From an uncultured Chloroflexia bacterium (GTDB taxonomy: Bacteria > Chloroflexota > Anaerolineae > JAAYZQ01), in contig CAVOXA010000010.1 in the NCBI GenBank assembly GCA_963700285.1, positions 1,280,001 through 1,344,000 of the forward strand: 64,000 nucleotides of DNA, in the 5' to 3' direction. A program made the translations under genes and the position numbers. Below the pieces are notes generated by a model that saw only the letters and a list, made by a program, of their open reading frames with translations, searched no databases and was not told where the DNA came from. Of the stretch, positions 49,752 to 57,922 are shown piece by piece; within the stretch, counting starts at the first letter, position 1, and the number at the start of each line of letters is the position of its first letter.

Positions 49752-50235
49752 GCTAACCCCTCGCCCCGAAAAGCCGCAAGGCCTGTCGCGGGCGTCCCCC
49801 TTGACGCCATGTCACTGCCCTGCCACTGATCCTCCAACGCTCGAGCCATGCCCGCGCTGAATCCCTTGGCAAGCTCGGGAGGGGCCTCAGTCGAATCGTC
49901 CGCGACGTGGCGATATCGACACGCTCCAAGCAGCTATCGTCGTTCAGCTACAATTCCGGCCCGTGCACGCTTTGGACTCGAAAGCGACCAGATCTGCGGG
50001 TCCGTGCCTCGTCATACCCCCTGGGCTCGCCTCCATGCTTTGCGGATCCACCCCAGCAATGGTATAATAACTACCGGGTGAGTCTGTTGAATGTTGACCT
50101 TCCACCCTCACGGGGACAGCGCCGATGGCAAAGGACACGAAAGCTCACCTGGACGGTTCCGGAGCCATTGCCCAGGACCACAGCCCCTCTGGTTGCCGTC
50201 CGCAGCGTGTGCCGCGCACAAGGAGTACAAAGGCC

Positions 50236-50727
50236 ATGAGAGACGACTTTAACAAGCAAACCATAGAAACCCTGGCGGACAGAGCCGGCAACCGTTGCTC
50301 TAACCCAGAGTGCCGCCAGCCTACCAGCGGCCCGCGCAGCGAGTCGACCAAGACGGTCAACATCGGCGTCGCCGCCCACATCACGGCCGCTTCAGAGGGT
50401 GGCCCTCGCTACGACCCCACGCTCACCCCCGAGCAGCGCCGACACCCCGACAACGGCCTCTGGCTCTGCCAGAACTGCGCCAAGCTGGTGGACAACGACG
50501 CCCTGGCATATCCGGTGGACCTGCTGCAGGTATGGAAGCGCCAGGCCGAAGATACGGCCCGGCAGGAGCTCCAGCGGCGCGGGGCGCCCAAAGACCAGCC
50601 CGGCGCCTCTTCCCGGGTCGTTCACACCGGCAGCGGAGGACTGGCCCAGGACGGCAGCGTGGCCGCCGGCAAGGGTGGCGTCGCCGTAGACGGAGACGTG
50701 CACGGCGATATCCGCATCGGTGGGTGA
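50236..50727 (+). CDS. HNH-type endonuclease with C-terminal Gly-rich motif (frame open from 50125)
   Basis: RAGNRCSNPEC, AAHITAASEGGPRYD, NGLWLCQNCAKLVD; tail GSGGLAQDGSVAAGKGGVAVDGDVHGDI. Confidence 0.78.
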   Translation: MRDDFNKQTIETLADRAGNRCSNPECRQPTSGPRSESTKTVNIGVAAHITAASEGGPRYDPTLTPEQRRHPDNGLWLCQNCAKLVDNDALAYPVDLLQVWKRQAEDTARQELQRRGAPKDQPGASSRVVHTGSGGLAQDGSVAAGKGGVAVDGDVHGDIRIGG

Positions 50728-50742
50728 GGAAGGCAGCAGACC

Positions 50743-53549
50743 ATGACGGACGACCTCGCCAGACGCTTGGCCCAACTTCGAGACGCCTACGAGAGCGGGA
50801 TTCTGGACGACGACACCTACCAGGCGACCATGGCTGCCCTTAGTGCGGAGCCTGACGGGACAGCGATACTGGTTGGCTCTGGGGCCGTCGCCCAAAAGGA
50901 CAGCGTCGCGGCTGGTGCCGGCGGCGTGGCCGTAGGCCAAGACGTGGAAGGTCACATCATCTATGCCGAGCAGGGTGCGACCGTCGTCATCGGCGAGGCG
51001 CCCGGTAAAAATGACCGCCGTGGACCGCGAGTCGGCTCTGGGCCGCTACCTGCACCACGTCATCAGCCGCAACCGCTACTTGCAGTTCCAGGGCATCCGC
51101 TCCGGCGGGCGGCTGGTCCACATCGAGCTGGACCGCATCTACGTCACCCTGCGGGCCACCCGGCAGCGAGTGGTCGCAGGTGGAGGATGACTGGCTGGCT
51201 CACGAGGCGGCCCTGGCGCCCGGCGAGTGCCGCCGCTTGCGCAGGGCACGGCCGTCATGGCCTCCACCGAGACCGTGACCGTCAGCGTCAACGAGGCCCT
51301 GGCCGAGCACTCCCGCCTGGTCGTGCTGGGCGACCCTGGCAGCGGCAAGACGACGCTGCTGCGCTACCTGGCCTTGCTCTATGCCCGCGACCTGGCCGAG
51401 GGTTCGACATCTGGTCCGGGACAAGCTGGGGCTGGACGAGAGCGGCCGACTGCCCATTCTGCTGCCCCTGCGCCAGATCGGCGCCTATCTGCAGGCCCAC
51501 CGTGCTGTCGAGGACGGCACCGAGGGCCACGTCCTGCTGCTCGACTTTCTGTTGCGTACGTTGGCAAATGAGCGCATCACGCTTGCCGGCCGACTTTTTC
51601 GACGAGTGGCTGGCCAGGAGGCAAGGCTGTTATCCTGCTGGACGGGCTGGACGAGGTGGCCGATCCCAACCTGCGGCGGCGGGTCTCCGCCTGGTGGAGG
51701 CCTTCACCCGCGCCTATCCTGACTGCCGCTACGTCGTCACCAGCCGCATCGTGGGCTACACCGGCCCGGCCCGCCTGGGCTGAAGGCTACGCCACGACCA
51801 CCGTGCGCGATTTTACGCATGGCCGACGTAGAGCGCTTCCTGGCCAACTGGCACCGCCTGGTGGCCGTGGGCCAGATGGGACCGGGCGACAGCGCCGAAG
51901 CCTACGCCGCCGAGCAGACCCGACCAATTGCTGCGGGCCATTCGGGCCAACGAGCGCATCCGCGAGCTGGCCATCAATCCCCTGATGCTGACCGTCATCG
52001 CCATGGTCCACCGCGACCGGGTCAAGCTGCCCGACCGCCGGGCCGAGCTCTACGCCGAGGCGGTGGATGTGCTGCTGGGCAAGTGGGAGGAGGCCAAGGG
52101 CGTGCAGGAGGTGCCCATCCTGCGAGGGCCAACCCTTTGACACCGGCGACCGGCGGCTGATGCTGCAAAGCGTGGCCCTGCGCATGCACGAGGCGGAGCA
52201 GAAGGAGGTGGCGTCGGCGACCTGCGCCGCTGGCTGGGCGAGATGTTCCACGAGATCGTGGGCGACTGGCGAGCTGCGGAGCGGGCGGTCAACCGCTTCC
52301 TGCATGTCATCGAGGAACGGACCGGTCTGCTGGTGGCCCGTGGCGAGGGGGTCTATGCCTTCTCGCACCTGACCTTCCAGGAGTACCTGGCCGCCCTGGC
52401 CGTGGCCGCGCGGGACGACTACGTGGCCTACACCCTGACCCGCGTCGCCCGATCCCTGGTGGCGAGAGGTGATCCTGCTGGAAGCCGGCTATCTGAGCTA
52501 TGCAGAGCAAGGAGCGCACCACGCGCTTGATCCGGGCCATCGCCGAACTGGAAGAGGAGCCGGAGCCCTTCACAACCTGGTGCTGGCCGCCGAGTGCCTG
52601 CGCGACGTGGGCGTCGAACCGGGTGGAAGGAAGCCTTTGGAGACAGAGGTGCAACAACGGTTGCGGTCCGAGCTGGAGCGCGGTTCGCCCATCGTAGTTT
52701 CGGCGCGTCTCTGGCAGGTTCAGCCACGCGTTGCCTGGGTTCTGACGAGCGTGGCATCTGGCGGCCGATGGCCGCTGAGCCGCATTGAGCAGTGGCCGAT
52801 TCGGCGTCCGATCGCCGTTTTGGACGAGCCCTACGGCGAGCCGGAGTGGGTTGAGATTCCGGCCGGAGAGTTTTGGATGGGAGAGGAGAGAGACGATTCA
52901 CCGTGTTAACCTTGAGACTTTTCGCATCTCCCGCGTGCCCATCACCAACGCCCAGTACCGACTTTTTTGTGGAGGCAATGGGTCACGAATCACCATACCA
53001 TTGGGAGGAAGGCCGCCCGCCCAAAGGGTCGGAGAGCCATCCGGTGGTCAACGTCACCTGGCACGATGCCCTGGCCTATGCCGCTGGCTGAGCGAGGCGA
53101 CTGGCAAGCAATACTACCCTGCCCTCGGAGGCAGAATGGGAAAAGGCGGCGCGGGGGGACGCGGACAAACGGGTATTCCCCTGGGGCGATGCCTTCGAAA
53201 CGACTCGCTGTAACTGTAGGGAACTAGGATTGGGCAATACCACGCCGGTGGGCATCTTTCCCGAGGGGGCCAGTCCCTACGGTGTTTTGGACTTGAGCGG
53301 CAACGTCTGGGAGTGGACGCGGAGCTTATGGGGGTGACCGAGTACTCGGTTCATACCCGTATGATCCAGAGGGATGGGCGTGAGAACCTGCAGGCCGGAG
53401 ATGACGTCCTCCGGGTGGTGCGTGGCGGGTCGTTCGTCAGTGATCAGAGGGGCGTCCGCTGCGCCTACCGCTTCAGGCACGGCCCGGTCAACAGGCGCAA
53501 CTATGTCGGGTTTCGGGTGGTGGTGGCCCCCGTTACCTCTGGTCTCTGA
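50743..53549 (+). CDS. NACHT NTPase - FGE-sulfatase/C-type-lectin-fold protein 1 (SHOCT-like N-terminus); many frameshifts, possibly a pseudogene
   Basis: [98 protein letters not shown]. Confidence 0.82.
53409..53549 (+). other. DGR-like variable region VR1
   Basis: Colinear with 57707..57847; 18 mismatches in 13 codons, all at codon positions 1 and 2. Confidence 0.85.
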
Positions 53550-53588
53550 CCCTCCGATCTCTGGATCTCTGATCCGCTGTCCTCTGAA

Positions 53589-57600: not shown

Positions 57601-57847
57601 CCCCTATGGCCTTCTGGACACGAGCGGGAACGTGTGGGAGTGGTGCGGCACCAAATGGTGCGAAAGTTATGAGGAGGAGCCTGACGAGTCTCTGGAAGGG
57701 GATGCCCTCCGGGTGGTGCGTGGCGGGTCGTTCGGCCTTAGTCAGAGGCTCGTCCGCTGCGCCTGCCGCTACTGGTACGGCCCGGACGGCTGGGACTACT
57801 ATGTCGGGTTTCGGGTGGTGGTGGCCCCCGTTACCTCTGGTCTCTGA
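54698..57847 (+). CDS. NACHT NTPase - FGE-sulfatase/C-type-lectin-fold protein 2 (intact, 1049 aa)
   Basis: [99 protein letters not shown]. Confidence 0.93.
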   Translation: MDFTFDTWKEAAANRLQSLGDRLERLKTREGPYLLYGTLCGLSLWPLVEAAQSGQLLPVIMALGGVAGGVGGNLIAEQIQRWQDQGAGVNEETVAAWVVEGAAGNTDLRQALDSILERLEAVQNAEAALAVDDRQWFAGTLRAEMAQLGNLPRFEATLIGSGTIAQDHSVAAGAGGVAVGRDVGGDVVMPGAHQEKHYHPAPTSEQQRQQEKEDLDRYLRNLQRLCNALPLAAMAEDETVHRRAEVTLNRVYISLNTTARVPLTQDGQDRHSRERPGFGDKERPLTALEATAREARLVILGDPGSGKSTFVNHLAYLLAGARLGQGETPDGWPHGPLLPIRILLRELAAVLPGDQDLQGLPAEKRAVRLVDEIWSHLRQETASTYRAAGVHRILEREVDRCQALVIFDGLDEVAPERRGMVRDAVDAFGQLCGENRVLVTCRVRSYSKGVSLGSFASVTLAPFEGDQIEEFVTRWYQALADLGTIKSQEAEKRAKNLHEAVQPMQELARNPLLLTTMAVVHTAQVELPRERARLYQRCVDVLLRRWHKHKVGEAPLLDRLGVSEAELLAALREVAYEAHHRGGTEEEGDLPRSLVLKIMAGHLSGHYGRAEQFLEYVDARAGLLIGRGGAEEPVYSFPHRTFQEYLAGCHLALGGRDFGRRLRRLLAEGDRWALASQLGAEHLLYNVGDVTRVLDASYTLCPVAEPDLEEAWRGVAWAGQFATEVGQRRVEQDEDAPDGGAAFLRRLVPRLVTILAQEKLGPVERAAAGRALGVLGDPRPGFGVDPESGLPDLAWCAVPAGPFPMGSDDEDELAFDNEKPQHEAVIAYDYRIAQYPLTNLQYAAFVSAQGYQERGYWTGAGWKWKGDKTDPRTFGGSFDLPNHPVVGLSWYEAVAFCRWLTEKLRETGGITQNDEIRLPTEAEWEKAARGTGGQTYPWGDEFDPARCNMYDTGIGNTSAVGAFPGSASPYGLLDTSGNVWEWCGTKWCESYEEEPDESLEGDALRVVRGGSFGLSQRLVRCACRYWYGPDGWDYYVGFRVVVAPVTSGL
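57707..57847 (+). other. DGR-like variable region VR2
   Basis: Partner of VR1 (offset 4298 bp, no indels). Confidence 0.85.
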
Positions 57848-57886
57848 CCCTCCGATCTCTGGATCTCTGATCCGCTGTCCTCTGAA

Positions 57887-57905
57887 ATCGCGCCGAAGGC
57901 GCGAT
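57887..57905 (+). promoter_or_regulatory. DGR-type target hairpin downstream of VR2
   Basis: ATCGCGCC-GAA-GGCGCGAT. Confidence 0.75.
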
Positions 57906-57922
57906 CGCCGCGGGCGCAATTC

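Follow-up and report, generated by a model that had tools for sequence, protein, structure and literature searches.

A BASS6-type tag shared by a Cap5-like HNH protein and two NACHT receptors with traces of retroelement diversification in an uncultured Chloroflexia bacterium

Introduction

STAND-FGS receptors diversified by diversity-generating retroelements (DGRs) have been proposed as bacterial antigen receptors, and many of them are without a known output. The locus described here raises the question of how such receptors could be connected to an effector. It lies in a 64,000-nucleotide stretch of DNA from an uncultured Chloroflexia bacterium (the window, G000:C10:1280001-1344000, G000 being the window's own genome assembly of 7.05 Mb in 22 contigs, 89% complete); positions are those of the window unless a contig or locus is named. 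The locus encodes, all on the + strand and in this order, an HNH protein ending in a short peptide tag, receptor 1 (short helix, tag, NACHT and FGE with variable region VR1), a REP-associated tyrosine transposase (RAYT, REP standing for repetitive extragenic palindrome) and receptor 2 (helical domain, tag, NACHT and FGE with variable region VR2). This gene order and domain layout had been proposed earlier from the letters of the DNA (the sequence-only reading), and open reading frame (ORF) and domain scans of the window bore them out. A genome of the same genus, called the congener below, carries the orthologous locus (L038; L021 is identical DNA).

As judged from our analysis, it is fairly probable that HNH and the two receptors constitute a three-gene immune module of the NOD-like receptor (NLR) type, in which DGR-mutated NACHT receptors would template tags of class BASS6 (BASS, bacterial amyloid signaling sequence) onto the HNH protein, whose clustering would lead to DNA damage and cell death. 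Overall, the system is real and coherent, and it is assembled from already described parts.

Results

The tag is a 36-residue peptide present at the C-terminus of the HNH protein (50614..50724, +) and ahead of NACHT in receptor 1 (50860..50967, +) and receptor 2 (55160..55267, +), with scores of 59, 55 and 50 bits, respectively, against a tag profile that includes these three copies. The next unrelated frame among 133,593 frames reached 12.3 bits and the best reversed frame 13.6 bits, scores by which a chance low-complexity match is ruled out, and within G000 the tag is confined to the three genes. Pairs of window tags have 19-22 of 35 residues in common, and the identical residues are encoded by different codons in 10/19, 13/20 and 10/22 cases. 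Since about half of the shared residues use different codons, the peptide rather than the DNA appears to be conserved, and recent DNA duplication as the sole cause of the match is ruled out.

As indicated by hand comparison, the tag is a long form of BASS6, because class C09 in supplementary file 1 of PMC8086366, which is BASS6 according to its README, lists peptides of the same form. At least six entries share this long form; over 38 positions, entry s080 has 21, 21 and 20 identities to the respective window tags (counted by hand, the authors' profile not being used), and s089, s090, s034, s040 and s037 have the form of the tag by eye. The sequence-only reading had seen in the shared motif a short amyloid-type sequence, and its membership in such a family is supported; the motif itself belongs to an already published set and is not novel. 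Searches with the tag in other collections gave nothing under E 0.4 in PDB (profile), a single uninformative match at 0.75 in the Atlas, no match of the peptide strings in the main texts of papers or in 9/11 supplements of PMC9815663, and 123 pattern matches in viral contigs, none of which was confirmed.

The profile search returned 441 proteins from 7998 scored candidates, the best 120 of which were classified (6 of these being window, congener or seed proteins). The tag is located within 25 aa of the C-terminus in 80 of the best 120 (67 small helical proteins, 4 caspases, 3 HNH proteins, 2 CHAT proteins, 2 receptor-2-type helical proteins and 2 others) and precedes NACHT in 20, in 15 of them together with FGE; the other 20 comprise fragments and proteins with different fusions (TPR, EAD7, HetE-N-caspase). 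The 67 small helical proteins are Bell/HetE-N-like, have a hydrophobic N-terminal helix and fall into three groups defined in this analysis. A precomputed HetE-N match was present on 39 of the best 120 and was weak when rescanned; association with Bell-like proteins is thus found among the homologues, and no Bell-like protein occurs at the window locus. A tag match at E 0.01 was detected in 72/401 genomes of the class, and a narrower profile detected 5/401 genomes in the phylum sample. In 40 regions fetched around the best tag matches, many of them on short contigs, NACHT or FGE was found in 27 and reverse transcriptase (RT) or Avd in 8.

Matching copies at the C-terminus of an effector and on the N-terminal side of the nucleotide-binding domain in adjacent genes, as in BASS6 pairs, occur in the window, and 16 loci have the tag both at the C-terminus of an effector and in a NACHT gene. 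Tags within these loci are more alike than tags of different loci (score 82.8 vs 70.9, permutation p 0.0004). Five genomes combine DGR parts with an effector and a receptor that both carry the tag, namely G001 (HNH), G641 and G029 (caspase) and G541 and G481 (Bell-like). The profile comparison that the sequence-only reading had called for thus places the motif at effector C-termini and ahead of NACHT and, with the pairing, argues for a module that pairs effector and receptor, rather than a generic low-complexity linker. The HNH protein, proposed as the coupled effector, is indeed tagged, and it belongs to a minority among exchangeable effectors, of which Bell/HetE-N-like and caspase proteins are commoner.

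The tag may also mark an exchange point, since similarity to the congener stops after each tag and fusions occur. The HNH-tag, head-tag and helical domain-tag segments are 83-85% identical in DNA to their congener counterparts, this likeness ends right behind each tag, and the NACHT bodies share mostly 29-34% protein identity. Effector-tag-NACHT fusions were found in L065, L072, P0002 and P0013. We infer from these patterns that recombination occurs at the tag, which would function as a plug around which Bell/HetE-N-like, caspase, CHAT and HNH effectors and NACHT-FGE bodies are swapped.

Some tagged proteins (P0007, P0014, P0017, P0064, P0033, P0044, P0086 and L068) have a second, Gln-rich motif right after the BASS6 tag, which by eye is similar to AEB69175.1 (5-29), a Methanothrix peptide whose aggregation has been shown (PMC8086366); proteins with both motifs could connect two signaling channels. 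The tag also stands on an enzyme-like ORF adjoining a HetE-N-like gene (L090:9886-11667) and, in the L090/L092/L093 set, on proteins with helical heads that look by eye like an effector-associated domain (EAD). The tails of P0123 and P0292 are EAD-like by eye and gave no Pfam EAD match. NACHT-FGE loci that were found independently of the tag are mostly without it, and at L019:8260-13399 another Gly-rich motif is common to the receptor and an ORF upstream of it.

The HNH protein (163 aa; 50236..50727, +) was identified as Cap5-like by PADLOC, PDB sequence matches, Foldseek and the Cap5 residues given in PMC12141522. It matched the PADLOC model of the HNH effector of CBASS (cyclic oligonucleotide-based antiphage signaling system) at E 4.6e-19 and Pfam HNH_2 at E 0.012, PsCap5 was found by Foldseek at E 2e-5, and PDB sequence matches included Cap5 structures. 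The HNH fold and the equivalents of Cap5 His56 and Asp95 are kept (His48, the general base, and Asp86). The SAVED domain of CBASS Cap5 is missing, the Cap5 matches being restricted to the HNH part, after which the protein ends with the tag. A possible in-frame N-terminal extension (50125..50235, +), visible in the ORF list and in repeat and tag-profile scans, contains a partial tag copy at 50140-50184 (17.8 bits), and its counterpart in the congener contains a partial copy in a different frame. The start at 50236 is favoured over that at 50125, because the tagged homologues are 163-174 aa long.

At E 0.001 the HNH protein has 7772 relatives. Of 120 close homologues, 12 have the tag at their end and several have different Gly-rich sequences there; in L019:8260-13399, P0285-P0287 and P0280-P0282 other Gly-rich tags take the place of BASS6 on this HNH type or on the receptor head. 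Among 33 long homologues that were scanned, 9 contained a STAND domain, 9 more contained TPR/HEAT repeats, one of these with a TPR-GreA/B-PIN domain, and 14 gave no match, so that in NACHT, NB-ARC and TPR-GreA/B-PIN proteins the effector position is taken by this HNH subfamily. A metagenome scan with HNH yielded 34 loci, and the tag was present in none of the best 19 examined.

Receptor 2 (54698..57847, +) is an intact protein of 1049 aa with a helical domain (aa 1-150), the tag (aa 155-190), NACHT (E 1.3e-9; Walker A at 55598 and Walker B at 55913, +) and FGE/CLec (aa 796-1041; E 2.8e-54), both domain matches being above the Pfam cut-offs. Receptor 1 (50743..53549, +), with a short helical head, tag, NACHT and FGE/CLec, was reconstructed from domain pieces and alignment to an intact homologue; its head matched SHOCT at E 0.011, under the cut-off, and NACHT and FGE were found as pieces. 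The NACHT-FGS architecture is therefore present outright in receptor 2 and across frameshifts in receptor 1. No Pfam EAD match was obtained at E 0.1 in the window proteins; by analogy, the BASS6 tag appears to act like a shared EAD.

The helical domain of receptor 2 (54698-55150) contains a conserved Gly-rich hydrophobic hairpin and occurs both in NACHT-FGE proteins and as a stand-alone domain with the tag (6 of the best 120 tag matches). Its confident structural model had no Foldseek match at E 0.001, the best VIA score being Z 4.8 and the Atlas matches below 0.9, and a Bell/HeLo-like identity is not supported by these searches. The domain is a candidate membrane effector. The proposal that one effector serves several receptors fits the tag shared by HNH and both receptors, and HNH may not be the sole output, because receptor 2 has its own helical domain, which is also known as a stand-alone tagged protein.

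In the congener, Avd, a template repeat (TR) and RT are located between the two receptors, and its TR could vary 18 codons. Compared with this TR, VR1 (53408..53532, +) has 21 mismatches over 120 nt, 20 of them on TR adenines (p 9e-11), and VR2 (57706..57830, +) has 25 mismatches, 24 on TR adenines (p 6e-13); between VR1 and VR2, 19 of 20 coding differences are at codon positions 1 or 2. The identification of both regions as DGR targets is borne out by these adenine-centered mismatches. Of 10 tag loci with RT or Avd that were tested, 7, among them G001 and G641, likewise have adenine-biased TR-VR pairs. Each VR is followed by a shared 3' segment with GC-rich hairpins (53533..53624, +, z -3.6, by repeat and hairpin scans; 57831..57959, +, by repeat, hairpin and terminator scans), which after VR2 includes a terminator-like stem (57923-57959). 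We take this segment to be the likely initiation of mutagenic homing (IMH)/hairpin target signal.

A genome-wide search for the missing retroelement, which the sequence-only reading had suggested, located RTs elsewhere in G000 (two DGR-like RTs and one RT fragment) together with two template-like repeats. The 3' ends of these repeats differ from those of VR1 and VR2, by which they are ruled out as their source. Elsewhere in G000, C10:223674-228666 contains a further NACHT-FGE DGR, which is complete and includes a TR, C14:606000-620000 a second, broken NACHT-FGE/RT locus, and C1:1724916-1728416 an RT that follows FGE genes and for which no template was found. The receptors seem, from the sequence, to have been diversified by a DGR and to be orphaned from it in this assembly, because no cognate TR was found and a RAYT/REP block sits in the place of Avd-TR-RT. 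With the DGR cassette apparently lost, the two sensor tips would no longer vary, except from a template missing from the assembly. Two-target loci of clade 5D, and loci in which repeat arrays have replaced parts of the DGR, have been described (Dore 2024, PMC10907252).

The RAYT/REP block takes the place of the congener's Avd-TR-RT and consists of a five-copy 83-bp tandem array with REP-like palindromes (53589..54086, +; repeat and hairpin scans), whose unit is found only here in G000, the RAYT gene (54072..54665, +; NF047646 at E 3e-15, under the cut-off) and a further palindrome after it (54670-54684). An independent contig spans RAYT into receptor 2 with 58 substitutions in 2234 nt and no gaps. 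RAYT is ruled out as a functional member of the system, being absent from the congener locus. Directly 3' of receptor 2 (58076-60071) lies a REP/MITE-like 19-copy array of a 106-bp palindrome (z -4.95; MITE, miniature inverted-repeat transposable element), units related to which form 15 clusters in G000. RAYT adjoins NACHT-FGE at about 223.2-223.8 kb and 1496.7-1497.4 kb of G000:C10, as well as in L020 and L030 (two other genomes); this adjacency at further places and genomes suggests that RAYT/REP elements recur at DGR-target loci.

Upstream of HNH, a candidate extended -10-like promoter element (50060..50068, +) was found by pattern match in a stretch 92% identical in the congener; it was not listed by the sigma-70 scan. 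A methyltransferase-like ORF and its neighbours at 46898-49353 seem split between frames, which indicates that frameshifts are patchy in the G000 assembly. Three diverged repeats with ~530 bp spacing at 20781-22748 probably encode a repeat-domain protein. On the minus strand, 44402-44917 presumably encodes a HigB/HigA-like toxin-antitoxin pair.

Discussion

The three tags and their family, the cross-genome pairing, the DGR scars and the Cap5-like fold are what the analysis shows, and the functional steps of the proposed module are modelled on the cross-seeding of BASS1/3, on Bab/Agp and on Cap5. A foreign ligand would bind the DGR-mutated CLec tip, the ligand-bound NACHT would oligomerize in analogy to NLRs, and the oligomer would align the tags into a cross-beta seed, as in BASS1, 3 and 11. 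The seed would recruit the tagged HNH protein and activate it by clustering, by analogy with Cap5, which is active as a tetramer, and the clustered HNH would damage DNA and cause cell death, analogous to abortive infection. Such killing could serve phage defence or kin discrimination alike. Both monomer models show the tag as disordered, as expected for a switchable amyloid motif.

A number of results weigh against the proposed module, and they are given here together with the alternatives that bear on it. HNH was present in none of the 40 other tag loci, and HNH-tag adjoins NACHT-FGE in only two congeneric genomes. Matching between paired tags is modest (identity 53% within loci vs 49.5% between, p 0.019), the window effector tag ranks 6th of 16 for its own receptors, and the pairing loci were chosen by tag score, are non-independent (two being congeneric) and had 7 roles set by hand; there is no strict private code between paired tags. 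A TR cognate to VR1 and VR2 was not found in G000, of which 89% is covered by the assembly. The disorder of the tag in the models would fit a plain linker equally well. Aggregation has been shown for BASS1, 3 and 11 and for one archaeal peptide, and not for BASS6, in the accessible literature.

The composition of the tag leads to an alternative in which coupling occurs via a finite homotypic beta-roll or beta-solenoid resembling the YadA head, which would serve as a small EAD-type adaptor and form no self-propagating amyloid. Gly and Ala are frequent in the tag and Asn and Gln rare (G 23%, A 19%, N 2%, Q 6%), an internal period of 12-14 residues is visible by eye, several tagged proteins have weak YadA_head matches (E 0.002-0.04), a fold which we take to be a beta-roll, and the tag weakly matches a trimeric-adhesin construct (E 5.4). 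Moreover, STAND-FGS receptors are joined to effectors by homotypic EADs (Kaur 2021, PMC8195603). However, the tag falls within the BASS6 set and stands on Bell/HetE-N-like C-termini, which is the layout of tested amyloid pairs, and in several homologues it is followed by the motif resembling by eye the aggregating archaeal peptide. We therefore consider the beta-roll adaptor unlikely, and amyloid-type templating is the reading retained here.

Activity of the HNH protein is a separate matter. The equivalent of His91, which with Asp95 binds Mg2+ in the Cap5 HNH domain, a domain that cuts as a tetramer with His56 as the catalytic residue (PMC12141522), is Ala82 in the window protein and Ala/Gly/Ser in 138/140 readable HNH homologues (10/150 being unreadable). 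DNase activity is therefore not assured, the Mg2+-binding His of Cap5 being replaced throughout the subfamily; the HNH identity of the DNase effector proposed by the sequence-only reading is borne out, and its nuclease activity is less certain. Accordingly, the tag might couple the receptors to an HNH protein that is not a killing DNase and works as a nucleic-acid binder or signal modulator, the output coming from the helical domain of receptor 2, with its conserved hydrophobic hairpin and its stand-alone tagged relatives, or from other tagged proteins. Searches of G000 gave no Bell/HetE-N partner, the control of the HetE-N search also being blank. On the other hand, His48, Asn73, Asp86, Asp88 and Cys residues are invariant or almost so in 47 HNH homologues, the invariant Asp88 might stand in for the lost Mg2+ ligand, and the same subfamily is placed in the effector slot of the NACHT, NB-ARC and TPR-GreA/B-PIN proteins mentioned above, which makes a non-nuclease role quite improbable and the clustering-activated DNase of the proposed module preferable.

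Receptor 1 is not one open frame, having ~25 single-base shifts in the assembly. Compared with an intact homologue, 624/841 aligned residues are identical (74%) and stops are confined to an unaligned stretch, and a similar indel pattern is seen in the congener (21 shifts in its first receptor and 9 events in RT). The frameshifts are probably assembly errors rather than decay, because the congener receptor and RT share the indel pattern and 74% identity is kept; the contigs of relatives provide no coverage of the receptor 1 body by close sequence. Receptor 2 and HNH are intact, and independent contigs cover pieces of both without frameshifts. It is very unlikely that the tag is above all a linker or a seam of recombination from domain shuffling in a decaying relic locus with its DGR lost and receptor 1 dead, a view to which the end of congener likeness behind each tag, the effector-tag-NACHT fusions and the frameshifts of receptor 1 would lend themselves, but the free C-terminal tags on 80 of the best 120 join nothing, the tag is conserved as a peptide, the aligned parts of receptor 1 are without stops, its indel pattern is shared with congener genes, and receptor 2 and HNH are unshifted.

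Each part of the proposed module has a described relative. As in the pairs of BASS6 and other BASS on Bell and NLR proteins (10.1101/2020.01.06.895854; PMC8086366), members of one tag family stand at the effector C-terminus and the NLR N-terminal side in adjacent collinear genes; caspase-like effectors also carry the tag, and CHAT is named there (10.1101/2020.01.06.895854). Unlike those pairs, whose described NLRs have TPR or WD sensors, the receptors here have a DGR-mutated FGE/CLec sensor, the effector is HNH, and the receptor tags follow a helical head and do not start at residue 1. In their accessible parts, the BASS papers give Bell, TIR, CHAT, hydrolase and cyclase as effector domains, and Dyrka 2020, which defines BASS1-10, does not mention FGE, HNH or nuclease in the accessible text (10.1101/2020.01.06.895854).

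The locus shares with STAND NTPase-FGS conflict systems (PMC8195603; PMC10907252, clade 5D, DGR 3/6; 10.1101/2022.07.19.500537) two NACHT-FGS targets per locus, DGR diversification, a homotypic adaptor common to a separate effector, Chloroflexota members and repeat arrays in place of DGR parts; unlike them, it uses a 36-residue tag of amyloid type instead of a helical EAD, and HNH takes the place of trypsin or TIR as effector. Many DGR targets have uncharacterized N-terminal extensions (Dore 2024, PMC10907252). The E. coli Bab/Agp antiphage system (BASS11; 10.1101/2024.11.07.622273) is an experimental precedent for sensor-to-effector amyloid signaling and abortive infection, and differs from this locus in its TPR-GreA/B-PIN sensor, membrane-targeting effector, different motif and lack of a DGR. 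With CBASS Cap5 (PMC12141522) the HNH protein has in common the fold and the His56 and Asp95 equivalents, and oligomerization-driven activation would carry over; unlike Cap5, it has no SAVED domain, no cyclase at the locus and Ala at the His91 equivalent, the peptide tag replacing nucleotide sensing.

Published work thus already covers BASS pairs on the one hand and, on the other, STAND-FGS receptors that are diversified by DGRs and linked to effectors by adaptors. A BASS motif joined to DGR-FGE receptors, or a BASS-tagged HNH, was not found in the literature searched, which mostly excluded subscription papers; the pair table of the 2020 preprint may list such receptors. The suggestion that the combination is undescribed agrees with this for the whole, the tag itself being published as BASS6.

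Conclusions

The BASS6 tag, common to small, cloneable effectors, is candidate wiring for one large receptor group. A receptor-to-effector assay is feasible without a ligand, by forced tag aggregation or a tested amyloid pair, as in Bab/Agp. If the proposed module is true, a DNase would join the amyloid-controlled effectors. Tentatively, and short of our favouring it, Chloroflexota may possess a modular adaptive-immunity kit, in which hypermutated NLR sensors, a prion-like BASS6 amyloid and interchangeable executioners, including a DNase switched on by the amyloid and having a non-canonical active site, would be combined through a tag that doubles as a recombination seam.

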